This document shows, piece after piece, positions 25,738-38,885 of a stretch of 64,000 bases of DNA. A model generated the notes under the pieces. It searched no databases and was not told the origin of the DNA. It worked only from the letters and a program-made list of their open reading frames with translations. Each line of letters opens with the position of its first letter. Position 1 is the first letter of the stretch. Source of the DNA: Nitrospirota bacterium (lineage in GTDB: Bacteria > Nitrospirota > Nitrospiria > 2-01-FULL-66-17); contig JBMOMC010000002.1 of NCBI GenBank assembly GCA_049325335.1, positions 160,001 through 224,000 on the forward strand. The letters run 5' to 3'. A program made the position numbers and the translations under genes.

Positions 25738-26478
25738 TTAAGGGGTCTGGGAGATGGCCCTGGCGATTTCCTCCGTCACTCGATCGGCTGCTTCAGCGGG
25801 GTCTTTGGCCGCGCGGATCGGCCGGCCCACCACAATAAAGTCCGCGCCTGCGGCAATCGCCTCGGCCGGAGTCGTGGCGCGGCGCTGATCGTCCCCGGGA
25901 ACAGCGGCCCACGCCGGACGGATGCCGGGGGTGACAACCAGAAAGTCGGGACCGAATGTCTGCTTGATCGCGCGGACCTCGTGGCCGGAGCAGACCACGC
26001 CCGCGCAGCCCGCGTCGCGGGCGATGGCGGCGCGACGCAGCACCAACCCCTCGACGGTCAGGTCGGGCGCGTACCAACCGGTGGCGGCCATCTCGGTTTT
26101 CCCGAGGCTGGTCAAGGCCGTGACCCCGAGCAACTGGGGCGACGTCGCACGCGTGTCAGGACCCGAGAGGCTGTCGCTCTGCTCGCAGTGGACGGTGAGA
26201 AATCGCACGCGGGGTCTTGACGCGGCGGCGATGGCCGCGCGGACGGTGGCCGGGATGTCGTGCAGTTTCAGATCGAGGAACACGTCGGCGTCGCCGAGAT
26301 CCGCGATCGCGTCGATAAGGGACGGCCCGGTGCTCACGAACAATTCCAAGCCGACCTTGAACAGGCCAACGCGGCCTTTCAACGCGGTAACCAGGCGGCG
26401 GGCGTCCGCGGCAGACGGGACATCCAGCGCGACGATCAACGTGTTTTTGGCCGTGGCGCGAAGGTCGGTCACGGGCAT
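25738..26478 (-). CDS. pyrF: Orotidine-5'-phosphate decarboxylase
   Basis: IVALD, KVGLELF, FLDLKLHDIP, TPGIRP, VVGRPI. Confidence 0.95.
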   Translation of the reverse strand: MPVTDLRATAKNTLIVALDVPSAADARRLVTALKGRVGLFKVGLELFVSTGPSLIDAIADLGDADVFLDLKLHDIPATVRAAIAAASRPRVRFLTVHCEQSDSLSGPDTRATSPQLLGVTALTSLGKTEMAATGWYAPDLTVEGLVLRRAAIARDAGCAGVVCSGHEVRAIKQTFGPDFLVVTPGIRPAWAAVPGDDQRRATTPAEAIAAGADFIVVGRPIRAAKDPAEAADRVTEEIARAISQTP

Positions 26479-27092
26479 CACAGCGCGGGTGATGTGCCTT
26501 GTTGATCGCCCGCATAGTAGGGCGTGGAGCCGCTCGCGTGATCGGTGGTGTCCACCACGCCGGTGAGTTCGGGGAACTCGTGGGACAACACGCGCATGAT
26601 CCCGTCGCGCAAGGTCTTGGTCGCCATGCTGCACCCCTGGCAGCCGCCGGACATTTCCACGTAGGCGACCGTGTCTTGCAGATCCACGAGCCTGACCCGT
26701 CCCCCGTGTTGGGCGAGGCCCGGGTTGATGGTCTGATCGAAGACCGCGCTGATCCGGCGGGCAAGGTCGCTGTCCCACGCCGGGTTCGGGTTGTCGATGA
26801 CCCAGCCCTGCGTGAATCCCGATGACAGGTAGTCGATTTCCGCGCCGCGGATCCACTCCACGCTCGCGTGATTCAGATACAACGTCCGCGCGCCGCACGC
26901 GATGGTGGGGTCGCGCGGATCGATCTGATCAGGGGCCACGAAGTCGAACGTGTAGGTGAAACTGCCCTTCTCGCGTCCCACGGTCAGCCGGACTCCGATA
27001 TTTCGGCTCCCGGCTAAGGCGGACTCCACCTTGGCAATCGCCTGGTCGGTGAGCCGCACGATCGGGCGGCTCTCGGTGGCTGGTTCGGTCAT
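26478..27092 (-). CDS. nfuA: NfuA-like Fe-S carrier (degenerate A-type domain + NifU-C)
   Basis: IDNPN, INPGLAQHGG, GGCQGC, DTTDH. Confidence 0.85.
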   Translation of the reverse strand: MTEPATESRPIVRLTDQAIAKVESALAGSRNIGVRLTVGREKGSFTYTFDFVAPDQIDPRDPTIACGARTLYLNHASVEWIRGAEIDYLSSGFTQGWVIDNPNPAWDSDLARRISAVFDQTINPGLAQHGGRVRLVDLQDTVAYVEMSGGCQGCSMATKTLRDGIMRVLSHEFPELTGVVDTTDHASGSTPYYAGDQQGTSPAL

Positions 27093-27269
27093 GACGCGGT
27101 CCCTCGGGTTCGTCCGTCTGAACGTGCTGCGTTGGGGCATTGTCTCAGACCGGGCGGTGCGAAGCAAGCCGCCATGGGCAGGGCTCGGCGGTTTTGACGG
27201 CCCGTGGATTGGCGCATAGACTTTCCCGGTGGTCACGCGCCGGCGTTGATCCGGCAGAAAGGGCAAGCC

Positions 27270-27653
27270 ATGGAAAATCCTGCGAATCGTCGAGAGTTCA
27301 CGCGGGTCAACATCTCGGTGGCGGTCGAGTTGTCCCCGCCGAATCAGCCCAAGATCGCCGGCCAAGGCCGAAGCCTCAGCGTAAAAGGCGTCTACGTCGC
27401 GAGTCCGCGGACACTGGCTCCGGGGACGGACTGTCCAATCACGATCATCCTCACCGGCGGCGGGGAGCCCATGTCCGTGCGAGTTTCGGGGAAGGTCGTG
27501 TACACGAATAAAGAGGGCATGGGCATCGAGTTTTTCGAGATGGATACCGAGAGCTTCATCCACCTCCAGAATCTCGTGCTCTATAACTCGCTGGATACCG
27601 CGAAGGTGGAGCGCGAGTTTGAAGAACACAACGGGATCAAACGCAAGGGATAA
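27270..27653 (+). CDS. PilZ domain protein
   Basis: RREFTR RxxxR motif; SLSVKG variant of D/NxSxxG; GMGIEF. Confidence 0.8.
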   Translation: MENPANRREFTRVNISVAVELSPPNQPKIAGQGRSLSVKGVYVASPRTLAPGTDCPITIILTGGGEPMSVRVSGKVVYTNKEGMGIEFFEMDTESFIHLQNLVLYNSLDTAKVEREFEEHNGIKRKG

Positions 27654-27682
27654 CGCAGGTCGTCACCCTCATCGGAGGGAAA

Positions 27683-27757
27683 TGGTGGGCGATGCTGGTA
27701 TCGAACCAGCGGCCTCTTGCGTGTGAAGCAAGCGCTCTACCACTGAGCTAATCGCCC
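27683..27757 (-). tRNA. tRNA-Val(CAC)
   Basis: GGGCGATTAGCTCAGTGGTAGAGCG, anticodon CAC, encoded CCA. Confidence 0.95.
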
Positions 27758-27770
27758 GATCACGGCAAAA

Positions 27771-28901
27771 TCAAGAAGTTGCATTGTACTTATCCGCCCC
27801 GTCCGAGTCAATTGTGCTCGCCGTTGTGCTCGCCGGGGCCTCGGGGCCGACTATTCCGAGTAAGTTCCGCACCGTGGCGCGGTCTTGTGCGAGGGCGGTC
27901 AGCTTCGTGCGTGCCACGTCCAAATCGCGGGCACTGACAATCGCATAGCGGTCGAACACACTGCGCGTCTTATGCCCGGACATCCGCATGGCCACCACGT
28001 CCGGAATCCCGGCCTGCACCATGTTCCGCACCGCGCTGCGCCGCAAATCGTGAAACAACCGTCCCTCCTGCCCCGCCTTCTTTGTGCCGTCGGTCCACGC
28101 GCGCCGAAAGTGGGTGATTCGCTTCCCGCGGAAATGACACACCCACGGACAATCGGGATACTCGGCCCGCGTCATGCGCCGCCACTCCATCAGGAGGGCG
28201 TGGACCTCGGGAATCAACGGGGCCTCGCGGCCCTCGTTATTTTTCGTCGTGCCCGGCTCCAGCCGGATCGTGCCGTGTTCCAACTCCACCTGGTCCCAGC
28301 ACAACCCGAGTATTTCCCCTTGCCGCAGCCCGGTCCAAAAGGCAATGGCCACCGCTACCCGCACGTGGGGAAGCACCACTGCCATCAGCGTGCGGTAGTC
28401 CTCTTCCTCAAAAAAGCCCTTCCGGACGTTCTCGCCCTTAAGCAGCGGAATGTAGGGGGTGCTGGCCACCAACGGCGGCTGGGCGCGCGCGCCCAGCGAG
28501 AACATGCGCTTCAGGGCGGTCAGCTCCCGGTTAATCGTGGCGGTGGCGCGGCCCTCCGCGCGCCGTCGCGCGATGTGCTCGCGAATCCGCATCGTGCCGA
28601 GTTCAGACGCCAAGAGGCCGCGGAACGTCTTCGTGAGATTGACCACGTGCGCCGACGCCGTATCCAGGCTGCGCCGGTTGTTCAGGCGGTAGTCATCCAG
28701 ATACAAGGCCGCCAGTTCGTCGAGCGTCGTGCGTTCGGCCTGCACTGCGGGCGCGCGGCCGTTGGCCACGTCGCCTTCGCGCCGTTTCAGCAGTGTCGAT
28801 GCGACGGATTTGAGGTCAGCGCCGGACGACTCCCGGAATAACTGGCCGCGGCGGTAGTACTGCACCCACCACACCCGGCCGCGTTTGTAGACACGTCCCA
28901 T
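27771..28901 (-). CDS. Tyrosine recombinase (integrase)
   Basis: TGLRQGE, TKN, HDLRR, SGHKT, RY catalytic set. Confidence 0.95.
   Translation of the reverse strand: MGRVYKRGRVWWVQYYRRGQLFRESSGADLKSVASTLLKRREGDVANGRAPAVQAERTTLDELAALYLDDYRLNNRRSLDTASAHVVNLTKTFRGLLASELGTMRIREHIARRRAEGRATATINRELTALKRMFSLGARAQPPLVASTPYIPLLKGENVRKGFFEEEDYRTLMAVVLPHVRVAVAIAFWTGLRQGEILGLCWDQVELEHGTIRLEPGTTKNNEGREAPLIPEVHALLMEWRRMTRAEYPDCPWVCHFRGKRITHFRRAWTDGTKKAGQEGRLFHDLRRSAVRNMVQAGIPDVVAMRMSGHKTRSVFDRYAIVSARDLDVARTKLTALAQDRATVRNLLGIVGPEAPASTTASTIDSDGADKYNATS
27783..27811 (-). promoter_or_regulatory. Element-encoded sigma70 promoter for tRNA-Val, inside the integrase 3' end
   Basis: TTGACT-17 bp-TACAAT on the minus strand, ~25 nt before the tRNA. 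Confidence 0.75.
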
Positions 28902-28932
28902 AAGCGATCGATCGCTCCGCGCGGGCCAAAAG

Positions 28933-29130
28933 TCAAGACCCGTGCGAGTTTTTGAGCCGCCCGATATAGGTATCGAGGTCGGCCCGGTCGATCAGCACGC
29001 GCCGCTTGATGCGGAGATAGGGCAGGTCGCCCCGGAATATCAGGTCGCGTAGTGTCCAGTACGACACCCCGAGATAGGTCGCGGCTTCGTGTTGAGACAG
29101 GAGACGAGGCGTCAAGGTTTCAGCCTTCAC
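28933..29130 (-). CDS. Excisionase-type HTH DNA-binding protein
   Basis: LLSQHEAATYLGVSYWTLRDLIFRGDLP...VLIDRADLD. Confidence 0.85.
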   Translation of the reverse strand: MKAETLTPRLLSQHEAATYLGVSYWTLRDLIFRGDLPYLRIKRRVLIDRADLDTYIGRLKNSHGS

Positions 29131-29704
29131 GGTGTGCCTCCCGCAGACGACGGCGCGCGGTGGATCGGCTGCAATGTAGCCGACGCGCAATCACCCCGAA
29201 GGACAGCCCCTCGGCCCGCAACCGCGCGACCTCGTCCGGCTGCGCCTCGTTGACCGGCCGTCCCAGCCGCACCCCACGGGCGCGCGCCGCATCGAGTCCG
29301 GCCTTGACCCGTTCGCGGATGATGTCGCGTTCAAGCTGCGCCATCGCGCCGATGATGGTAAACATGGCGAGGCCAATCGGCGTGGACGTGTCGAACTGTT
29401 CTTGCAGCGAGACAAAGCCCACGTTCAGGCTGCGGAACTGTTCCAGCCCCGTGATGAGGTGCTTAACCGACCGGGCGAAGCGGTCAAAGCGCCAGACCGC
29501 CACGGCCTGAAACTGCCCGGCCCACGCGGCCGTGAGCATCCGGTCGAGGGCGGGCCGCCGTTCCCTCGCGCCGGAGTAGCCGCGGTCCACAAATTCTTCG
29601 ACAATGCTCCAGCCCCGCGCCGCCGCGTGCGTCCGCAACGCGACTAACTGGACTTCCGGTTCCTGCCCCTCGGTACTCACGCGGGCGTACAGTGCAACCT
29701 TCAC
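29120..29704 (-). CDS. Serine recombinase (resolvase/invertase) with C-terminal HTH
   Basis: ALYARVST, DRFARS, ERVKAGL, GRP, HTH tail. Confidence 0.93.
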   Translation of the reverse strand: MKVALYARVSTEGQEPEVQLVALRTHAAARGWSIVEEFVDRGYSGARERRPALDRMLTAAWAGQFQAVAVWRFDRFARSVKHLITGLEQFRSLNVGFVSLQEQFDTSTPIGLAMFTIIGAMAQLERDIIRERVKAGLDAARARGVRLGRPVNEAQPDEVARLRAEGLSFGVIARRLHCSRSTARRRLREAHREG

Positions 29705-30921
29705 GGTGTCCCTCCTTTGAAAATCAATACGTATTCGTGCAACGTGGGAATGAAGCGCGCGGGGCCGTAGCGGAAGTGCTGCGCGTGGCGTTCGTGCTGG
29801 CCGTCCTTAATCAACACGGCCTCAAGCGGCAACACGTTCCAGCGAATCAGGTCGGAGTGAATCGGGAAGAACACGCCATTTTTGCGGCCGTCGCCGATGA
29901 GGATTACCACGCGGCCCGTGGGCGTGACGACCGTAGCAAGCCGCTCGAATCCCGCGCGCAAGCGTGCCGCGAAATCGTCATAGCCGCGCGCGTTCGACAA
30001 ATCATTCGGATGGTCGCTGTACTGAAATCCCGGCCAGTAAGGCGGGTGCCAGAACACCACGTCGAAGCGGCGGTCCGGCAACGGCGAGGACAACAGGTCG
30101 AATCCGGCCGTCAGGTCCCGGCCCTCGTACTCAATCTTGAGGTCGGCGCACACCTCGCGCGTGGTCCCGCCGCCTTCCATCGGGTCGAAGACCGACGCGG
30201 GCTTGTAGTAGTCGAACACGTCAATGAGCAGATACCCCGAGGCATTCCCGAAGTACTTCGCCTTGCCCCACGGCCCGCGTTCGGGATAGCGCAGCAGCGA
30301 CGTGAAGCCCGACCGGGTTTGCAGGTGTCGCCGGATCGCCTCTTGCCGGGCCTTGGCCTCAACCACGGCGCGCTCGAGCGTGGACTTCGGGACCCCGGTA
30401 GCTGTCTCCGCCTCGCGCAGCGACGCGCCGTTATCTATGAGGCGCAGCGCCGCGGCCAAGCCCTCGCGCGTGACGGTGTCCCGTTTATAAGCGGCTAATA
30501 TCTGGGCCACCCGTGCTTGGGAGAGGCCCGCGGCCGTCGCGATCTCGGCTTGCGTGAGGCCTTGCGCCGCGAGTTGCGCGAGCACGCGGTTGCGCTGCGC
30601 GGTCGGAATCGGCGCGCCGTGCCGGTTCAGTTCCAAGGCGCGCGCCAAGTGGCGCTCGGGCGGGCAGTCCTCGAAGATGACGGGCACGGTGTCGGCTCCC
30701 GCGGCGTGGTGGGCGCTCAAGCGGTGGAAGCCGTCCAGCAAGACACCGGTTGCTCGGTCTACGCGCAGCGGGGGCAAGCCCTCGCGGTCTTCGCGGTAAC
30801 GGGCGAGCGCGTCCTCGTCATACTCGGCCCGCGGCCAGGCCGTGCGGTCTTGCCGAATGGCGGACAGCGGGACCGCCTCTACGCGCCCCGGAGCCGGGCG
30901 TTCGTCGGGTGCGGGCATCAT
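29701..30921 (-). CDS. ParB-like/HTH/DNA amino-methyltransferase fusion
   Basis: LLDGFHRL (ParB-like), HTH segments, DPMEGGGT (motif I), HPPY (motif IV). Confidence 0.75.
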   Translation of the reverse strand: MMPAPDERPAPGRVEAVPLSAIRQDRTAWPRAEYDEDALARYREDREGLPPLRVDRATGVLLDGFHRLSAHHAAGADTVPVIFEDCPPERHLARALELNRHGAPIPTAQRNRVLAQLAAQGLTQAEIATAAGLSQARVAQILAAYKRDTVTREGLAAALRLIDNGASLREAETATGVPKSTLERAVVEAKARQEAIRRHLQTRSGFTSLLRYPERGPWGKAKYFGNASGYLLIDVFDYYKPASVFDPMEGGGTTREVCADLKIEYEGRDLTAGFDLLSSPLPDRRFDVVFWHPPYWPGFQYSDHPNDLSNARGYDDFAARLRAGFERLATVVTPTGRVVILIGDGRKNGVFFPIHSDLIRWNVLPLEAVLIKDGQHERHAQHFRYGPARFIPTLHEYVLIFKGGTP

Positions 30922-32579
30922 CGGGCGGGCTCCACGGCGTTCGGTGCGCCATAATCCCCGCCCGTCGAAGTGGCCGCCGTTACGCGTGCGGTTGAGCGGG
31001 CGTGGGACTGGCAGAGGGCGCGCGCGCCGTAGGTGGTCCACGTCCCGGCCCCGCAGTCGGCGCAGCGGCCGAAAGCCCTCACGTGCTTCGGCCCGAGTCC
31101 CGGAATCTCGCGCGGCCAGCCGGTGCCGTCGTCCGCCCCTAGATAGCTAGCTAGGGTATCTATGGGCTGGGCGGTAGATATATCTCCGGGCGGTGAGCCC
31201 GGCTCAGAGTCCGTAGCTATATAGCTATGGGAACACCCCTCGGCGTTCTGTGCCGTCTCCCTCGCGTCGTGTTTCTTGTGTGGACGGGATTCATCCAGAA
31301 CATCCGGAACAAGTCTGTTGTTTCCAGGAGTTGCGTCATAATTGCGATCCGGAACAACGGGCCGATGTTCCGGATCGCAAACCGCGATAACCGTCTGATT
31401 TAACGGAGTTGTTCCGGATGTTCCGGATAAACGGCCCCCGGAAGGAGAAGGACCCGACGGGAGATACCGCGACCAGGTCTCACGGAATTGGTCCCGGCGG
31501 TAGCTCTGCCGGGTGTCCTTGCCGGTCCGGACCTTCTGCGGGCGGATGTTGAACCCCTTGAGCCGGTCCGCGAGGTGGCGGGGTGTGATGGCCTTCCCGT
31601 ACCAGTCGCCCCACGGCGCGTCTTCGATCGCCGCTAGCGCGTGACACAATTCTTCGGAGGTCATGTAGTCCGACGGCGCGTCGGCAAACAGGCTCCGAAT
31701 ATCCGCCAGCAGGCGAACCGCGATCGACGCCTCGTCCGGGGCGGTGTGGCCATCCAGCGCGAGGACCGCCGCGCGGGCGCGGCCCGGCCACTCACCCCCC
31801 GCAGCGTCGGCAATCGCGAGCAGCGGTTCGGCTCCGTCTTGCGTGCGGTCACTCAGTGCCGGCGGGAGGTCGGGTGTGGCGTCCTTGAGTGTGGCGACGT
31901 GCGCCGCGGCCCACTCGGCGATTTGTTCCCGGATCACTGCGGCGTCCACCTCGGCGCGCCGCCGCGTGGGACCGCCGAATCCTTCCATCGGTTCCTCGCG
32001 GGTGCGGCGCACCATGCGGAGCGGAATCGACCGGTCGGCAATCGTGTCGGGCAACCGCCCGATCCCCGCGAGCGCGCGAGGGCCGAACACCGCAAAGTCT
32101 TTCAAGTCAAACTGTTTCCCAACGCATCGGGACACGGACGCGCCCCGCCGATTGCCGGAGTTCAGGAGCGCGCGCAAGCCCTCATGGTCCTTCGCCTTCG
32201 GCCCGAACACGGCGTCTACCTCGTCGAGCAGGAGCGTGGGCCGGTCGCGGTCGAGTTTGCGAAACAGGACCGCTTCGCTCGGCGCGACGGCGCGCCAGGG
32301 GCGCGCGACAAGCAGTTCCAGTATTTCCAGCAGCCGGGTCTTGCCCGATCCCTTCTCGGGCGAGGTCACGTCAAGGAAGGGGGTCGCCTCCGCGGCGTCG
32401 ATGGCGTGGGTATGCACGATCCACAAGGCGATCACGCACACTTGATCGGGCGACAGCACCACGAAGCGGCGGACGAACTGCATCAGGTCGTGCAATAGCG
32501 GTCCCACGTGGGGCGCGTGTGCGGGCGGGTCCAGCGGCCGCCCGGCTTCCCCTTCAAGGGCGTCAATGTCGTCGGACAT
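30918..32579 (-). CDS. DUF3631-containing P-loop replication protein
   Basis: ALWIVHTH, SPEKGSGKT, LLLDEVD, LPDTIADRSI, EDAPW. Confidence 0.8.
   Translation of the reverse strand: MSDDIDALEGEAGRPLDPPAHAPHVGPLLHDLMQFVRRFVVLSPDQVCVIALWIVHTHAIDAAEATPFLDVTSPEKGSGKTRLLEILELLVARPWRAVAPSEAVLFRKLDRDRPTLLLDEVDAVFGPKAKDHEGLRALLNSGNRRGASVSRCVGKQFDLKDFAVFGPRALAGIGRLPDTIADRSIPLRMVRRTREEPMEGFGGPTRRRAEVDAAVIREQIAEWAAAHVATLKDATPDLPPALSDRTQDGAEPLLAIADAAGGEWPGRARAAVLALDGHTAPDEASIAVRLLADIRSLFADAPSDYMTSEELCHALAAIEDAPWGDWYGKAITPRHLADRLKGFNIRPQKVRTGKDTRQSYRRDQFRETWSRYLPSGPSPSGGRLSGTSGTTPLNQTVIAVCDPEHRPVVPDRNYDATPGNNRLVPDVLDESRPHKKHDARETAQNAEGCSHSYIATDSEPGSPPGDISTAQPIDTLASYLGADDGTGWPREIPGLGPKHVRAFGRCADCGAGTWTTYGARALCQSHARSTARVTAATSTGGDYGAPNAVEPAR
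31293..31428. repeat. Symmetric iteron array, putative replication origin
   Basis: ATCC(A/G)GAAC x3 facing GTTCCGGAT x3 around a 15-bp inverted repeat. Confidence 0.65.
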
Positions 32580-33090
32580 GGTCCCTCGTGCTGAGCCGGT
32601 GTTCGCGGAACGCGAACGTGAGGCGGTGCAGGTGCTCCGCTATCCGTAAATCGTCGTAGCCGCGGCAGACGGCGCGCATGGCGCGGTCAACATCGGCCGC
32701 GCTCCACCCGGACACGTCCAGGCCGCGCGCCCGATCGAGCACCGCAAGGCCGCGCAACTCGCGGGCGATCGCACCGCGCCAGAGGCCGTATTCCGCCGCG
32801 CGCAGAAACTCCCGCGGAGTGAACGGCCGCGGGTCAGGAACCCGGCGCGTGCTGCGTGGGGACGGGTGGTCAAACAACTCGTGCGGCGTGAGCCCGAGGG
32901 CTGCACAAATCGCGTCAAGTGAGCATCCCGTAAAGCAATGCAGGAGCACTCCGCGTTCTCCCGCACGGATGGACAGCGACGGGCTCCGGTCGTTGTGCGC
33001 GGGACACGGGGCAGTCCAGCCGTCGCCCGAAGGTTTCGCGTGGGGCAACCGATTGAGCACCCGTTGAACCGGAAGAGACGCCATCGCCAC
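32563..33090 (-). CDS. Primase-type zinc-binding domain protein
   Basis: CPAHNDRSPSLSI...LLHCFTGC. Confidence 0.75.
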   Translation of the reverse strand: MAMASLPVQRVLNRLPHAKPSGDGWTAPCPAHNDRSPSLSIRAGERGVLLHCFTGCSLDAICAALGLTPHELFDHPSPRSTRRVPDPRPFTPREFLRAAEYGLWRGAIARELRGLAVLDRARGLDVSGWSAADVDRAMRAVCRGYDDLRIAEHLHRLTFAFREHRLSTRDHVRRH

Positions 33091-33093
33091 CCC

Positions 33094-33381
33094 TTACGGC
33101 TCCCGCGGTCCGGCCGACAGTCCGGCGGCCTGGGCCACGCGGTCGATCCACGCCCGCACGGCGGCGACCGGCCGCGCGCCGCGCCAAATCCACCCGCCCG
33201 TGGTGAGTCGGAGATAGGCGGTCTTGGTCCCGAAGGACCGCACCTCGCAGCGCCAACACCGCCAGTACGGGCGGCCCTTCACGTCAAAATGCACGTCAAG
33301 CTCGGCGAGACAGTACGGACACGCCCCGGTGAGACTGTCCCCTTGTATTCTGGTATGTGCTGCGCTATCGTCCATGCTCAC
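33094..33381 (-). CDS. Small zinc-ribbon protein
   Basis: CPYC...CWRC; RBS-like GGGGAGAG upstream. Confidence 0.55.
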   Translation of the reverse strand: MSMDDSAAHTRIQGDSLTGACPYCLAELDVHFDVKGRPYWRCWRCEVRSFGTKTAYLRLTTGGWIWRGARPVAAVRAWIDRVAQAAGLSAGPREP

Positions 33382-33545
33382 TCTCCCCTGTGGCCGTTGT
33401 TCTATCTATATGCACGCGACTGTATAAGAGGGGATATCCCGGAACCAGGCGAAAAACGCGTGGCCGTGCAAAAAACATGAGTTGTGTGTTTTGATGTCCC
33501 CGCGAAGCCGCACTAGGAGCGGGCCGGATGAGTTTCTGGTTTTAG

Positions 33546-34355
33546 ATGGTGAAATTCATGCAAGTAGATTGGGGAAAATGGATCGCGGACTACTACCCAC
33601 GCTGGACTGACCGGCGCTGGAGAGCGTGCGTCACGGAGATTCGAGAGCAGCGGAGACTGTCCGTCGAGGAGTTCCAGTACGTCGTGCTTGGGTGCGGATA
33701 CTACTTCCACGTCCACCGACCCTCTGCGGACGACGTGGTGTCACGGCTGAAGCAAGCGATCAACGGCCTCGACGGGGAGGATATCGCCGAGTTCATATTG
33801 AATGAACAGGCCATTCGGCGACGGGTCGGAAAACTTGGGTGGGAGGTGGGGCCGGATCGGGTCCGCCTGAGCAGCACGCCCAAGCGTGGGCCGGTGGTTA
33901 ATCCGGCTCCAAGAATCGCGGCGCTATCGGTGTACGCTTGGATTAAGCGGCGGAGGCCGGAGACGGACCCGACGGGGTTTGTCTGCGCGGTCTATCACGC
34001 GCTATCCGGTCGGGGGATCAGTGACGTGACGTTCGGCCGGATGCAAAAGGCTGCGGCTGCGGTCCATGTGCTCCGGTACGTGCCAGAGGAGCGGAACGTG
34101 TCCGCGATTGAGGCGTGGCTCGGGATGCTTGAGAGCCGGTACAAGGGGTTTCGTCGCGCGGAGGATGAAGCCAAGCAGGCTGAGCGAGCGTCGGTCACGA
34201 AGCCCCTGGAGAAAGACGACATTCCGAACCTGTATCCGATCAGCGGGATGGCGGCCGTTGTGCTGCGGGCCGTCGGGGTGACGGTCGAGCCGAGAAGACG
34301 CGCGGACGGGCGCTTCTTACCCAGGGGTCAAAAACTGTCTCACGTTGTGAGGTAA
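33546..34355 (+). CDS. Hypothetical protein
   Basis: 269-aa ORF divergent from the replication operon; no motif recognised. Confidence 0.5.
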   Translation: MVKFMQVDWGKWIADYYPRWTDRRWRACVTEIREQRRLSVEEFQYVVLGCGYYFHVHRPSADDVVSRLKQAINGLDGEDIAEFILNEQAIRRRVGKLGWEVGPDRVRLSSTPKRGPVVNPAPRIAALSVYAWIKRRRPETDPTGFVCAVYHALSGRGISDVTFGRMQKAAAAVHVLRYVPEERNVSAIEAWLGMLESRYKGFRRAEDEAKQAERASVTKPLEKDDIPNLYPISGMAAVVLRAVGVTVEPRRRADGRFLPRGQKLSHVVR

Positions 34356-34445
34356 AAAGGGCTGAATTTTCAGGGATGCGCGGGGCAGTTTGGCGCGAGG
34401 TCAAAAACAAATCTTAATGCGCGATTGATAGGTTGGATCACGACG

Positions 34446-35078
34446 ATGTACTACGACGAAGAAGACTACAGCGCGGAGGCCTATCTCGACGACGCGCTAA
34501 AGAGTATTTCCGAAGATAATACAAGGGCCTATCTAGGAGTCTACGGAGACGCGATAGAAGAAAGGGTTCAGGATTGCCTAAAACAAGCTGAAGAGTTGCT
34601 GTCCACAGGCTATAACGGACCAGCCCTGGCTCTTGCTGCAACCGCTGTTGAACTAATGATCCGATTCATGTTACTGCGTCCCCTAATTGAAGGCGCCTTC
34701 CTGTCAGAGGAATGGGCAGAGATTCTGGCGACGCGTGTGGCTACTGGGCGCTCCGCGGAGGACCGCGAACTTTTACCTGCGGTTCTGCAGCGATGGCGAA
34801 TCGACATTGCGACGATCAGGACCCCTGGAGGCTTCCCTCTCTGGGAGTTTGTGTTGAAAGAACTGTGGCCGAAACGTCATAACTTCGTACATAAAGGTGA
34901 GCGACCGTCGAGGGAGATTGCTGCGACGGCAATCGAGTGTGCTCGCTGTTTCAAAGAAACGGTCATCGGAGCGATAGCGATGAAGCTAGGATTTACGCGC
35001 GCAAGAACTGGAAAATGGTGCGAGATTGATAGCGAAGACGGGAGTATGAGGAGATTTGGCCCCCAGAGTCCATTCTAA
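34446..35078 (+). CDS. HEPN-like protein (RxxxxH)
   Basis: ALAATAVE N-terminal helix and KRHNFVH motif; AT-richer codon usage. Confidence 0.6.
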   Translation: MYYDEEDYSAEAYLDDALKSISEDNTRAYLGVYGDAIEERVQDCLKQAEELLSTGYNGPALALAATAVELMIRFMLLRPLIEGAFLSEEWAEILATRVATGRSAEDRELLPAVLQRWRIDIATIRTPGGFPLWEFVLKELWPKRHNFVHKGERPSREIAATAIECARCFKETVIGAIAMKLGFTRARTGKWCEIDSEDGSMRRFGPQSPF

Positions 35079-35188
35079 GGTCAATATGTGTTCTTTTTGA
35101 CCCTGGATGTGGCGATTCCGATGTGCCTTGTAAATTGGGGGGCTTTGGATGATGAGGGTGTCGGGTTATTGCCCCCCGCGCAAATGAC

Positions 35189-35602
35189 CTACTCGCGAAC
35201 GTCATTAACGAATGTTTTCCCTGCCAAAGCGCCAAGAAAGATAGCTCCAGACTGGAGCACGAAAATAAGAAACTTTCCAATTCCCGATCCCTCAAGCACC
35301 ATGCGCTCAAAATCATAAATGAAAAACAGAATCACCAGGACCGCCGCGACGGACACAAAACTGACATAGATTGTAGAAATGGGGACCGAACGGAAGAGGA
35401 GTGCTGTAACGTAAACTGCAAAAAAACCTCCTACCCCTGGGCTAAGGACCCACATCAAGAAAATGTTAACCAGAGGGAATACACCAACTTCTGGTCGGGC
35501 CCGGCTGGCAATGATACCGATAACAGCTAAAATCGTCGCCATCAGTACCCAGCCGAGCACTAAGATAATCACGCTCGAAAGGGTTGAGAGGATGGCTTTC
35601 AA
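35189..35602 (-). CDS. Small multi-pass membrane protein
   Basis: About four hydrophobic segments. Confidence 0.6.
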   Translation of the reverse strand: MKAILSTLSSVIILVLGWVLMATILAVIGIIASRARPEVGVFPLVNIFLMWVLSPGVGGFFAVYVTALLFRSVPISTIYVSFVSVAAVLVILFFIYDFERMVLEGSGIGKFLIFVLQSGAIFLGALAGKTFVNDVRE

Positions 35603-35605
35603 CGG

Positions 35606-35881
35606 TCAGCGCTCCGAATCTTTGTCGATGGCTGCGCCGATGGCATGGAGAACGCCTCCAGCAATTCCGCTCCCGTAAACAAGCAGACAAGGGAACCAGT
35701 TGCCATGAGCTAACGCTTCATACCAAGGGGCAAAGGCCAACGTGACGGGCCATAAAAAGAACGAAATTATCCCTCCAAGGAATCCAAGGTTGTCAATAGC
35801 TATATCGAGGGAAATGAAAAATCCCCAGAGGCCGGCGACAACAAAAATGATGACCGCTGGTGTTTTGAATATTATTCCCAT
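35606..35881 (-). CDS. Small membrane protein
   Basis: Hydrophobic 91-aa ORF, GGAG RBS, 3 nt from the next gene. Confidence 0.6.
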   Translation of the reverse strand: MGIIFKTPAVIIFVVAGLWGFFISLDIAIDNLGFLGGIISFFLWPVTLAFAPWYEALAHGNWFPCLLVYGSGIAGGVLHAIGAAIDKDSER

Positions 35882-36229
35882 CGTGGATTCTCCGACGTAG
35901 ATCAGAGGGTACCAAGGGTAGGCCTATACCTTTTGAAGGATGGCATCCAGATTTCAGCACGAGCAGAAAATATTGTCAACAACAGGGGTGATGAGGGCCT
36001 TGTCGTCGTTGACATCATGGAACGACGAGGGGTCAGCCCCTGACTTGCAACAAGCGAGTCCGGCCTGGGCCTGGGTTCACCCCACCGAATTGTGCTCGGA
36101 ATGTGCTCAAGCCCACCGGTCTCCAGCCCATTCAGGCCTATTCAGGCCAAAGTCGCCCGAACGCGAATCTCTTGGCTGGAGTGGGATTTAGTGACGTGGA
36201 GTGGGCTGGGGTAGGTAGGCTCTACCCGA

Positions 36230-36274
36230 GTGTGAAGCAAGCGCTCTACCACTGAGCTAATCGCCCGATCACGG
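36230..36274 (-). repeat. att repeat: 5' half of tRNA-Val plus 8 nt leader
   Basis: Identical to 27721-27765. Confidence 0.93.
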
Positions 36275-36290
36275 TCCGGAAGGGTGTCGC

Positions 36291-36319
36291 AGTATAACGA
36301 TCCGAAGTTGGCGAGTCAA
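36291..36319 (-). promoter_or_regulatory. Native sigma70 promoter of tRNA-Val, now reading into the element
   Basis: TTGACT-17 bp-TATACT. Confidence 0.75.
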
Positions 36320-36386
36320 TTGCGCTCGGCCTACACACGAGCCGGTGGAGCTCCGCTCCACCGGCTCGTGCCGTCTCATGGCGTCA

Positions 36387-37097
36387 CTAAAACGTGGTGC
36401 CGGCGCTGACGCTGATCGCGGTCTGGTCCACCAACCGCAGTTCCACGCCGAAGGTGACGTTGCCCTGGGCCTTGGCGTTGAGACCCGCAAACAGGCCGAA
36501 CGCGTTGTCTTCAGCCGCGCCGCCGTCAATATCGAGTCCGGACCAGGCGAATCCGCCGTACGGCACCAAGCCGAACTCGGTTTGGCGCCGTTTGGGGTCG
36601 CGGGCGCCGGCCATGTCGAGCGACACTCCGAGTGCGGCATCGTGCTCGGTCCATCCGAGACGGCCAAAGGCGTCGTTTTCCGTCCTCGTATGTGTGGTTT
36701 GGAACACGCTGCCGATTTTGAGATTTGCCGAGGGGACGGTGGCCCAGGTCACGCGCATGCCCACGCCGAACGAGGGACCAATGTCCGAATCGAACGTGCT
36801 CCCCGGGTCGACGCCGAAATCGCCGAACCCGAGCCGAAAATCCAGGTCAAGCCGCTCGTCGATCCCCAACGTGCCCTTGGCGAAGATCTGTGAGCCTTCG
36901 GCTTCTCCTCCCCCCGTCAAGTCTCGGTCCACCAACACGTTCACTTCCGCGCCGAGGGCGGTTTTGCCCGCGCCGGTGGTGGCGGCCGGCACACCGAGCG
37001 GGGCCGCGTGGGCGGTTGCGGCCAAGCCGCCCGCCAGCACGATGGTGATCACGGCCAGGCGCATCCCTCGCGCCCTGAAGATGGTTCTGTGGTTCAT
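36387..37097 (-). CDS. Outer-membrane beta-barrel protein
   Basis: AHA signal peptide, alternating beta strands, C-terminal Phe. Confidence 0.7.
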   Translation of the reverse strand: MNHRTIFRARGMRLAVITIVLAGGLAATAHAAPLGVPAATTGAGKTALGAEVNVLVDRDLTGGGEAEGSQIFAKGTLGIDERLDLDFRLGFGDFGVDPGSTFDSDIGPSFGVGMRVTWATVPSANLKIGSVFQTTHTRTENDAFGRLGWTEHDAALGVSLDMAGARDPKRRQTEFGLVPYGGFAWSGLDIDGGAAEDNAFGLFAGLNAKAQGNVTFGVELRLVDQTAISVSAGTTF

Positions 37098-37238
37098 GAG
37101 TCCTCCTGGGTGAAAATGATGGTGTTCTTTCCCACGGTCGTCCCGACCGCGCGACGTGTATAGCAAATTAGGAACGGGAATACAATTGGAGGGTCCCGGG
37201 AACGTGTTGCCCGGGACGCCGGTCTTGCGGTGAACCGG

Positions 37239-38885
37239 TTACCGATTGTCCGCGTGTCTGGTGAGCAGCATGACCGGCAGCAGGCCGACCAACACCAGCG
37301 CCAAGGCGGGGAGGGCGGCATGGTCCCATTGGCCTTCCGAGGTGAGTTCGAAGATGCGCACCGACAGGGTGTCCCAGCCAAATGGGCGGGTCATCAAGGT
37401 CGCGGGCATTTCCTTCATCACGTCCACGAAGACCAGGGTGGCGGCGGTCAACACGCCGCCGCGGATGATGGGGATGTGCACGCGGCGGAGGAGACGGCGT
37501 CCGCTCACCCCCAACCCGCGCGCGGCTTCTTCGAGGTTCGGCGTGACGCGGTGCATGGCGCTGTTGATGGGGCCGAAGCCCGCGGCCAGGAAACGGGCCA
37601 GGTACGCGAGCAGCATGGCGAGCGGCGTGCCGAGGATCACCAGCCCGACCTCGCGTTGCAACAATGGGAGGCCGGCGGCCACCTGCCGATCCAGCCATGC
37701 GAGCGGGATGAACGTGCCCACCGCCAAGACCGAGCCCGGCAGGGCGTACCCGAGGGTGGAAACGCGCGTGGCGAGGCGCACCATGCCGTTGCCGTGTCGT
37801 TGCGCGTAGGTCAACACCAACGCGCACGCGCAGGTCAGCACCGCCGCGGCGGCGCCCAAGAACGTGGAGTGCCAGAGAAACCCGACGGCTCGCGCGTCCA
37901 CGTCGCTCCCCAGCCGGGGCAGCCCCCATGCCAGGAGTTGGAGGACCGGGACTCCGAAGGCCAACGCCAGCACCGCGGCGCACGCGCCGAACGCGAGCCG
38001 CGCCGGGACGGTGGTGAGCCGGATGCGTTGGTCCGCGACGTCGTGTTTGCCGGCGGTGGTGTAACGGCCGCCAGCGTGCCAGCGTTGTTCCAGGACGAGC
38101 AGGGCGAACACGATCACGATCAGCACCGAGGCCAATTGCGCCGCGGCGTTCAGCGAAAACATGCCGAACCACGCTTTATAAATCGCGGTGGTGAACGTAT
38201 CGTAGTTGAACACCGATACCGTGCCGAAGTCCGCCAGGGTTTCCATGACCACCAACGCGAGTCCGCCCACGATCCACGGCCGCGCCATGGGCACGGCCAG
38301 GCCAAAAAATCCGGACCAAGGGCCGTGCCCCAGGGCTTGCGCAGCCTCCATCGCGCGTTTGCCTTGGGTGAGAAATGCCTGGCGGGTCAGCAAATACACG
38401 TACGGATAGAGCGCCAGACTCATGACGAGAATCACCCCGCCTTGGGATCGAATCGAGGGGAGGCTTGCCCATTCGGCCGGGAGGGCGTCGCGCATGAGGC
38501 GCTGAATCGGCCCCGTGTAGTCGAGCAGCCCGATCGCCACAAACGCGGTCACGTACGCGGGGATTGCCAGGGGCAACATGAGCGCCCACTCGAATAGACG
38601 GCGGCCCGGAAACTCGCAGACCGCGGTGAGCCACGCCAAGCCGACTCCGAGGACTCCCGTGGTTACGGCGACCCCCGCAACCAGCCAGAAGGTGTTGCGG
38701 AGCAGGTCGCCGAGCACCGTGTTCGCGAGATGACGCCATACCTCGTCCGCGGGAGCGAACACGGATGATAGCACGACGACCAACGGGAACACCACGATTC
38801 CGGCGATCGCGAACGCGCCGAGGCGCCACGCATCCACATCCTGCTTCCGTGGTACTGTCAGGACGTTGCCGGAATAGCTTGTCAT
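37239..38885 (-). CDS. fbpB: Fe3+ ABC transporter permease
   Basis: PLAIPAYV, ETLADFG, EEAARGLG, KEMPAT. Confidence 0.9.
   Translation of the reverse strand: MTSYSGNVLTVPRKQDVDAWRLGAFAIAGIVVFPLVVVLSSVFAPADEVWRHLANTVLGDLLRNTFWLVAGVAVTTGVLGVGLAWLTAVCEFPGRRLFEWALMLPLAIPAYVTAFVAIGLLDYTGPIQRLMRDALPAEWASLPSIRSQGGVILVMSLALYPYVYLLTRQAFLTQGKRAMEAAQALGHGPWSGFFGLAVPMARPWIVGGLALVVMETLADFGTVSVFNYDTFTTAIYKAWFGMFSLNAAAQLASVLIVIVFALLVLEQRWHAGGRYTTAGKHDVADQRIRLTTVPARLAFGACAAVLALAFGVPVLQLLAWGLPRLGSDVDARAVGFLWHSTFLGAAAAVLTCACALVLTYAQRHGNGMVRLATRVSTLGYALPGSVLAVGTFIPLAWLDRQVAAGLPLLQREVGLVILGTPLAMLLAYLARFLAAGFGPINSAMHRVTPNLEEAARGLGVSGRRLLRRVHIPIIRGGVLTAATLVFVDVMKEMPATLMTRPFGWDTLSVRIFELTSEGQWDHAALPALALVLVGLLPVMLLTRHADNR

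Follow-up and report, generated by a model that had tools for sequence, protein, structure and literature searches.

In the Islander survey, tRNA gene (tDNA) islands with a displaced 3′ fragment number 3,760, versus 159 with a 5′ fragment, in a total of 3,919 (PMC4383910, Table 1; statements on published systems refer to the accessible parts of the sources cited). The present work concerns an 8,509-bp integrative element of the 5′ kind, located at the tRNA-Val(CAC) gene of a Nitrospirota bacterium in a 64-kb stretch of contig JBMOMC010000002.1 (hereafter, the window; coordinates are positions within it). In the explanation that we favour, with a probability of roughly 0.7, this element would have replaced the front half of tRNA-Val and supplied a promoter of its own. 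An earlier reading, made from the letters of the window only (the sequence-only reading), had presented the duplicated 5′ half as a departure from the usual 3′ end; the 3′ type is indeed the majority, but the 5′ type was already a known minority. The 5′-fragment islands of the survey share the layout found here, in which an intact tRNA gene and a 5′ fragment displaced upstream in the same orientation enclose a tyrosine-integrase island, and the attachment (att) site is centred on the anticodon loop. The accessible text of that paper does not contain the word 'promoter' and does not cover the transcription of the rebuilt tRNA gene, whereas the locus analysed here presents a conserved promoter-like and leader cassette, sites on two arms, and several polarity switches in one integrase family.

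Among archaeal elements, pTN3-like integrases use the tRNA 5′ half, the recombinant tRNA being expressed from the integrase promoter, and the same review, with reference to Williams 2002, describes the use of the 5′ half as seldom encountered in bacteria (PMC8371274). In a Thermococcales element the rebuilt tRNA-Leu is separated from its promoter (Cossu et al., PMC5495485, S2 Fig legend). These pTN3/TKV4-type elements resemble the present one in that attB is the tRNA 5′ half and the tRNA is parted from its original promoter, with an element promoter instead (PMC8371274; PMC5495485). In them, however, att lies inside the integrase gene (int), integration splits int and the tRNA is said to use the integrase promoter, whereas here int is whole, a separate sigma-70-type site is present and the host is a bacterium. 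A 'suicidal' integrase of the pTN3/SSV type could be ruled out, as int is intact (376 amino acids), with its stop codon (27771–27773) outside the repeat. An overlap between the int coding sequence and att DNA is also known from Mx8 and SSV, whose integrase open reading frames (ORFs) cross attP (mentioned in PMC4383910); here the overlap comprises just the P′ arm and the putative promoter, and the stop codon precedes the core, so that integration leaves the Int protein unaltered.

Two bacterial cases are also related. The Klebsiella islands of integrase clade I.d insert upstream of arg2 (10.1101/2020.11.02.365908), that is, like the present element, upstream of the target tRNA gene rather than downstream. 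Compared by description and not by integrase sequence, they differ in using the D-loop sublocation instead of the anticodon loop, and the accessible part of the source describes no replacement promoter. IMEVchUSA3, in turn, supplies a new promoter at dusA, as shown by a lacZ fusion, and SXT at prfC is cited likewise (PMC8409611). In both, as here, insertion occurs in the 5′ end of a gene, the gene is restored and a new promoter is brought; their targets, however, are protein-coding genes that acquire altered N-termini, while here the tRNA is restored exactly and the promoter is a predicted one. No description of a bacterial element-borne tRNA promoter was found in the literature searched, paywalled papers and supplements being outside that search. 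The layout is already known, though rare, and the case is instructive rather than new in kind; what it adds is a conserved cassette, polarity switches within one integrase family and apparent scars that lack the integrase.

An element with reversed polarity at tRNA-Val(CAC)

Direct repeats were sought with a repeat finder, and tRNA genes with ARAGORN and Rfam. A single 45-nt repeat family was obtained, its two copies being identical (45/45) and spaced 8509 nt apart (Table 1). Because the coordinates of one copy overlie the tRNA-Val called by ARAGORN, the repeat corresponds to tRNA nucleotides 1–37 plus leader; the extent previously given for it, reaching from anticodon loop as far as the tRNA 5′ end with 8 nt of leader, proved exact. 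Identity stops precisely at the 3′ edge (last base) of the anticodon loop. The displaced copy was not called as a tRNA by ARAGORN or Rfam, and Rfam found no RNA family besides tRNA-Val in 26500–37500. ARAGORN called 51 tRNAs genome-wide, among which Val-CAC, Val-GAC and Val-TAC have one copy each, the gene in question being the sole CAC gene.

The intact tDNA and its cognate 5′ fragment, both on the minus strand, flank an island with int between them, and the displaced fragment is the 5′ part of the gene (nucleotides 1–37), 8.5 kb upstream in the direction of the tRNA. The interval 27766–36274 is a site-specific integrative element of a tyrosine-integrase family common in this bacterial class. 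It has reversed polarity, since it carries the 5′ half of its target instead of the 3′ half, and the tRNA-proximal copy of the repeat is the one supplied by the element. The claim that the upstream promoter at 36291–36319 is now separated from the intact tRNA was borne out by the repeat positions and the promoter scan described below. The integrase retains R193, K220, H284, R287, H310 and Y319, the catalytic residues, which are invariant in an alignment of 16 sequences.

The octamer GAGCACAA occurs in four exact copies in the 64 kb, three of which lie within the two arms of the element. Two form the P′ arm, in the int tail; the third, together with its one-mismatch partner GAGCACAT, forms the P arm. 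Such arm-type sites on both sides of the core are predicted integrase-binding sites and conform to the classical attP plan, which fixes both ends of the 8,509-bp element. Two copies of GGCCTGAAT, offset by 10 nt, lie at 36130–36148, between the P-arm repeats and the core, and may be a site for the excisionase or for a host bending protein.

The attP has the order usual in the family, namely int, the two arm repeats of the P′ arm, ∼85–90 nt and a core that would lie in the tRNA anticodon loop, with a second arm pair making up the P arm. What separates P′ arm and core is the tRNA 5′ half in sense, and in most relatives the 3′ half in antisense. Since this segment is reversed, integration into tRNA-Val(CAC) would have shifted the promoter, the leader and the 5′ half that were resident there to the opposite end of the element (36230–36319), and the tRNA gene would have been rebuilt from the 5′ half carried by the element. 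A stretch of ∼54 nt separates the arm repeats from the 5′ end of the tRNA; it would hold a sigma-70-type promoter and a leader, which most likely now serve to transcribe the tRNA. The int ORF reads on across the arm repeats and this promoter, and its TGA stands 14 nt ahead of the tRNA.

Both polarities within one integrase family

A relative of Int at E ≤ 1e-40 was present in 101 of the 401 genomes of the class, and 57 integrase–tRNA pairs were drawn from 70 fetched loci (genomes, contigs and loci are denoted by our handles G, C and L). In 45 of the 57, int converges with the tRNA 3′ end, the usual arrangement (3′-type); in 12 it is co-oriented with the tRNA and upstream of it (5′-type). Eighty metagenome loci comprised 14 of 5′-type, 23 of 3′-type, 13 with a truncated int 3′ end and 30 without an adjacent tRNA. 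Int matches at 49–51% identity carry the names Nitrospirales or Nitrospira; when the single Int protein was the query against the genome contigs, only one relative (36%) was obtained.

Displaced 5′ fragments were found at other 5′-type loci, at 5.5 kb in G028 (tRNA-Met), 15.3 kb in G142 (Thr), 27.3 kb in G366 (Arg-TCT) and 14.8 kb in G135 (Met), and G009 has four displaced tRNA-Val 5′ halves in a row, which confirms the reversed layout in relatives. In all five genomes the fragments stop at the anticodon loop or a few nucleotides beyond it; as with the inner edge of the repeat in the window, this points to a crossover within the loop. No 5′ fragment was detected within 20 kb upstream of the tRNA-Arg-CCT of G091, where int is co-oriented, and the contig of G018 extends just 4.4 kb upstream. 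The sequence-only reading had proposed, as a check, to look in homologous integrases for a 5′-tRNA att site and a promoter at their 3′ end; the first recurs in the 12 5′-type pairs, with their repeated displaced fragments, while the second is less regular, as TTGAC occurs in just 7 of those 12.

Paired 8-mers of the same type as the arm repeats, offset by 11–12 nt and located 37–76 nt from the tRNA end, were present in 53 of the 57 pairs, of both kinds, and the family also shows them at Arg, Thr, Ser and Leu tRNAs. The tRNA-Met element of G028, which is almost wholly co-oriented with its tRNA, has the same two-arm layout with arm pairs on both arms. The predicted distance from P′ arm to core is kept across the family, and just the tRNA segment is turned round. 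A quick maximum-likelihood tree built from 71 integrases requires a minimum of four changes of the 5′ label, and in it the Int of the window is sister to a 3′-type tRNA-Arg(CCT) clade (Shimodaira–Hasegawa-like approximate likelihood ratio test, SH-aLRT, 95).

Some relatives are informative about mobility. Locus L131 bears, 5′ of a tRNA-Val(CAC), an Int 87% identical to that of the window, together with a resolvase (84%), a ParB/methylase (77%) and an excisionase (Xis, 58%), in a host whose PilZ and NifU proteins share only 44% and 51% identity with their counterparts in the window. Contigs from a groundwater run of another study (X2) match 27730–33377 with ∼7–8% differing letters; this related element is without the cargo part. 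At locus L132 (2586–2746), 5′ of tRNA-Glu(CTC), Int is 72% identical but resolvase and ParB/methylase 89%, values that therefore point to an exchange of int/att modules between elements.

Other arrangements were observed in the family. The four tRNA-Val 5′ halves of G009 lie on one contig (G009:C91; L048, 6313 and 19933; L049, 3028 and 8834) in a single orientation, all ending after the anticodon loop, and the intact tRNA-Val gene is on C106 (L050). Each half is preceded by a promoter-like sequence of its own and bears a similar element-end sequence, with an int fragment between the last two; the array looks like the outcome of serial insertion on the 5′ side. Integrases of the family are present on both sides of a tRNA at G142:C1:2632595-2654461 (Thr-TGT), G366:C17:11353-55472 (Arg-TCT) and G091:C2:346664-364060 (Arg-CCT); in the first two, fragments lie on both sides, a displaced 5′ one upstream and a 3′ one downstream, and the last has a 3′ fragment only.

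A promoter-like segment between the arm repeats and the tRNA

A promoter scan of 27000–37000 returned 6 sites, versus 2.2 ± 1.4 in shuffled sequences. The two best, both 10/12 and on the tRNA strand, are at 27811–27783, within the last codons of int, and at 36319–36291, upstream of the displaced fragment, the places given by the sequence-only reading. The distance from the end of the −10 hexamer to the 5′ end is 25 nt for the tRNA and 24 nt for the fragment. With 17 nt between its hexamers, the site in int falls within the 16–18 nt expected of a bacterial sigma-70 promoter. When the 80 nt upstream of the tRNA were shuffled 200 times, 1/200 reached 10/12. The two promoters had been described as near-identical; this holds for the −35 hexamer (TTGACT) and the 17-nt spacing, which they share, but the −10 hexamers differ and the sites are 61% alike over 60 nt. 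Many tRNA genes of the genome are preceded by TTGAC(A/T)-17/18-TAnnnT ending 6–25 nt upstream, and those for tRNA-His, Lys, Arg-CCT, Val-GAC and Ala-CGC have TTGAC-type sites 20–22 nt upstream.

Eight upstream regions were aligned: the element side and the displaced copy of the window, and those of L131, G003, G001, L132, G002 and G005. TTGAC, a GAT triplet, TAnAnT and the 17-nt spacing are invariant in all eight, while the spacer varies; the element promoter site itself is conserved in L131, G003 and G001. At L132 the site reads TTGACC-17-TATACT and is accompanied by arms and a similar leader, so the same arm–promoter–leader arrangement is found at a tRNA-Glu gene. Among the 11 closest Int homologues (60–98% identity), 8 retain the C-terminal residues specified by the arm repeats, by the −35 hexamer (T-I/V-D or T-V-E) and by the −10 hexamer (Y-N or Y-T), with a fixed gap of 6 residues of variable sequence between those encoded by the hexamers; the other 3 have different tails. 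This pattern fits a constraint acting on DNA and not on protein. Within 80 nt of the tRNA, TTGAC is found in 7/12 of the 5′-type class loci versus 0/45 of the 3′-type; for the metagenome loci, the figures are 3/14 and 0/23.

Two congeneric genomes, G003 and G001, have no Int relative and no displaced fragment. The 60 nt upstream of their tRNA-Val are nevertheless 90% and 87% identical, respectively, to the element side of the window, while the 60 nt downstream are 45–56% identical. In G003 the two GAGCACAA arm repeats and the int tail frame, stop codon included, are preserved, and the genome is without most of the beta-propeller-type gene found upstream in G002, which is truncated right beside the segment. 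In G001 the first arm repeat has decayed, though both hexamers and the 17-nt spacing are intact. The two genomes would thus hold the arm/promoter segment of an element as the sole upstream sequence of tRNA-Val, that is, as scars left without an integrase. The PilZ gene downstream of tRNA-Val is kept in three congeners and two genomes of the same family, and the upstream synteny is different in each.

From these comparisons, the promoter borne by the element is very probably functional. The sequence-only reading had considered the site a dual-coded promoter rescue. A promoter-like site does lie in the last codons of int at the usual distance from the tRNA, and it is conserved; dual coding as a special adaptation, by contrast, did not stand, given that in this family the int ORF routinely crosses the P′ arm, running past the tRNA start by up to 460 nt in 3′-type relatives. 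The passage of the int ORF through the promoter looks like a by-product of this habit. In many of the 3′-type relatives (loci L074–L126) the ORF has no stop codon until 64–460 nt past the tRNA start, and their C-termini would therefore change upon integration.

Several observations weigh against the favoured explanation. No contig from four DNA runs joins 27720 to 36230, and neither a circle joint nor an empty attB, both of which the sequence-only reading had proposed as checks, was seen in those contigs, which drop rare forms. There is also no isogenic empty site, as each of the four genomes of the genus has a different flank upstream of its tRNA-Val gene, and it is from the repeat and the arm sites that the right boundary is therefore deduced. 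A look-up of RNA runs for 27100–37000 listed none that contained it. In a stricter promoter test (at least 4/6 in each hexamer and 9/12 in total), only the locus of the window passes among the 12 5′-type loci, and TTGAC is missing from 5/12 of the 5′-type class loci and 11/14 of the 5′-type metagenome loci, so a dedicated consensus promoter is not universal to 5′-type elements. The count of polarity switches comes from a quick tree rather than a careful search, and the relatives are not all independent, L057, L081 and L099 being near copies of one another. Finally, int is co-oriented and directly upstream, and transcription begun at its promoter could run on into the tRNA and supply it as well.

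This last point can be developed into an explanation of its own, in which the tRNA is transcribed mainly by read-through from int or from an upstream element promoter, and TTGACT-17-TACAAT is incidental or conserved for the binding of integrase or a host factor in the P′ arm. Such read-through is reported for the pTN3-type archaeal elements, and the closeness of the int end to the tRNA (14 nt), the 5′-type relatives without TTGAC and the abutment of the −35 hexamer on an arm repeat would all agree with it. We nonetheless regard it as unlikely, because G003 and G001 have lost int yet retain the hexamers and their spacing, even with the first arm repeat decayed in G001, and because the 3′-type relatives, which share the arm repeats, never show TTGAC, and in form and distance the site resembles what precedes other tRNA genes of the genome. 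It is somewhat less probable still that the segment is the ancestral chromosomal tRNA-Val promoter of the genus, captured once by the element; this would turn G001 and G003 into virgin sites rather than scars, and the element would hold a passive copy of host DNA instead of bearing a portable cassette. Both do carry it without any integrase, and all tRNA-Val upstream regions of the family align, with TTGAC, GAT and TAnAnT in common. The int tail frame and arm repeats of G003 are, however, difficult to reconcile with a virgin site, the more so as arm repeats are a family feature also seen at other tRNAs and the beta-propeller-type gene is truncated next to the segment. Moreover, the segment is 87–90% identical between genomes in which the downstream flank is unalignable and PilZ is 57–70% identical, and the same cassette is present at tRNA-Glu in L132.

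That the element is a decayed, immobile remnant, with repeat and int surviving by chance and a poorly expressed tRNA-Val(CAC) tolerated since tRNA-Val(TAC) can read GUG, seems very improbable. The existence of Val-TAC and Val-GAC genes and the failure to see an excised form or empty site in the contigs of the four runs would suit it; an intact int ORF with all catalytic residues, a perfect 45/45 repeat and paired sites kept on both arms would not, nor would the core-module contigs at ∼7–8% difference in the metagenome of another study or the 87% Int relative at the same site in a different host (L131). The replacement of the tRNA-Val front half by a 5′-type element with its own promoter is the explanation we retain.

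Displaced promoter, gene content and significance

The displaced promoter (Table 1) faces into the element. On the minus strand, the stretch from 36230 to 35259 gave no call of a terminator-like site, and expression of the cargo by read-through from this promoter is plausible. An arm-like 8-mer, GAGCGCAA, at 36320–36327 abuts its −35 hexamer, and its −10 region matches those of the L132 cassette and of the G002 and G005 promoters, the form GATCG-TATACT being present in the element-borne cassette of L132. The supposedly native promoter at 36291–36319 may thus itself come from an earlier element, and we infer repeated insertion and decay at the tRNA-Val site. The displaced promoter directly follows the terminator stem of the neighbouring gene, which encodes an outer-membrane-like protein of 259 amino acids; the T-run is missing here but present in relatives. 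The places concerned are 36329–36400 and 37170–37240, and the hairpin abuts the promoter. In G001 and G002, the 259-amino-acid gene and the adjacent ABC permease gene are ∼50 kb apart.

The genes for Int, Xis, resolvase, ParB/methylase, the DUF3631 protein and the CHC2 protein are all on the tRNA strand, in that order outward from the tRNA. The true start of the ParB/methylase is probably downstream of its ORF start, and the DUF3631 protein is probably part of a replication module. At 31290–31431, just past the DUF3631 domain and inside the long ORF, lie nested inverted repeats (30-nt arms, 87%; 19-nt arms, 95%) rich in TCCGGAAC, which may be a replication origin or an operator. The cargo region, at 33.5–36.2 kb, has a GC content of 49–58% versus ∼65%, and its ORFs have no match in Pfam, PHROG or PADLOC. 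Beyond the tRNA, in 26478–27653, a 383-amino-acid NifU-domain ORF (minus strand) and a 149-amino-acid PilZ ORF (plus strand) overlap by ∼425 nt, so one of the two starts is probably over-extended.

Table 1. Features of the element and its target, by position in the window
Feature	Position	Strand	Remarks
tRNA-Val(CAC), intact	27683–27757	minus	ARAGORN; Rfam tRNA, 73 bits
Anticodon loop (7 nt), inner edge of repeat	27721–27727	minus	presumed overlap (crossover) region
tRNA-proximal repeat copy, tRNA nucleotides 1–37 + 8 nt leader	27721–27765	minus	identical to 36230–36274
Tyrosine integrase, 376 amino acids	27771–28901	minus	PF00589, E 8.6e-19; PHROG 1 integrase, 1.2e-54; stop codon outside the repeat, 14 nt before the tRNA
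Putative sigma-70-like promoter TTGACT-17-TACAAT, in last int codons	27783–27811	minus	10/12
P′ arm, two exact GAGCACAA offset 12 nt, inside int tail	27812–27831	minus	second copy abuts −35 hexamer
Excisionase-like HTH_17 protein	28933–29190	minus	PF12728, 8.1e-10; PHROG 66 excisionase, 9.5e-9
Small serine recombinase (resolvase)	29120–29704	minus	PF00239, 1.6e-45
ParB-like/HTH protein fused to N6/N4 DNA methyltransferase	29701–31041	minus
DUF3631 protein	30918–32579	minus	PF12307, 1.1e-46
CHC2 zinc-finger, primase-like protein	32563–33090	minus	PF01807, 1.9e-4; PHROG 6088 DNA primase, 6e-13
Low-GC cargo ORF	33546–34355	plus
Low-GC cargo ORF	34425–35078	plus
Low-GC cargo ORF	35189–35602	minus	with 35606–35881, first sizeable minus-strand ORFs past the displaced promoter
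Low-GC cargo ORF	35606–35881	minus	see 35189–35602
P arm, GAGCACAT + GAGCACAA offset 11 nt	36090–36108	minus	∼125 nt inside the displaced repeat
Displaced repeat copy, tRNA 5′ half (36230–36266) + 8 nt leader	36230–36274	minus	fragment only
Displaced putative promoter TTGACT-17-TATACT	36291–36319	minus	10/12; faces P arm and minus-strand cargo ORFs

When an element integrates into the 3′ part of a tRNA gene, the host promoter remains in control; when it integrates into the 5′ part, it has to bring along the transcription signals of an essential-type host gene. A concrete system in which this can be put to the test is offered by the comparative set assembled here: a single integrase family found in both polarities, a cassette that is conserved, relatives located at further tRNAs and what appear to be integrase-less scars. 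It raises the questions of how elements keep the host tRNA expressed, of the use of a displaced host promoter for cargo, and of the horizontal replacement of tRNA promoters. It also carries a warning for annotation, as the promoter of a tRNA gene may be element DNA.

A broader proposal, for which we see the chances as evenly balanced, is that a portable promoter and leader cassette fused to the int 3′ end lets lineages of this integrase family switch repeatedly between targeting 3′ and 5′ halves and between tRNAs (Val, Glu, Met, Thr, Arg, Leu), and stays behind as the resident promoter once the element decays. If so, the tRNA-Val(CAC) gene would be run from element-derived DNA in three of the four genomes of the genus, the displaced 'native' promoter may be an older scar, and mobile elements would drive the horizontal turnover of chromosomal tRNA promoters.

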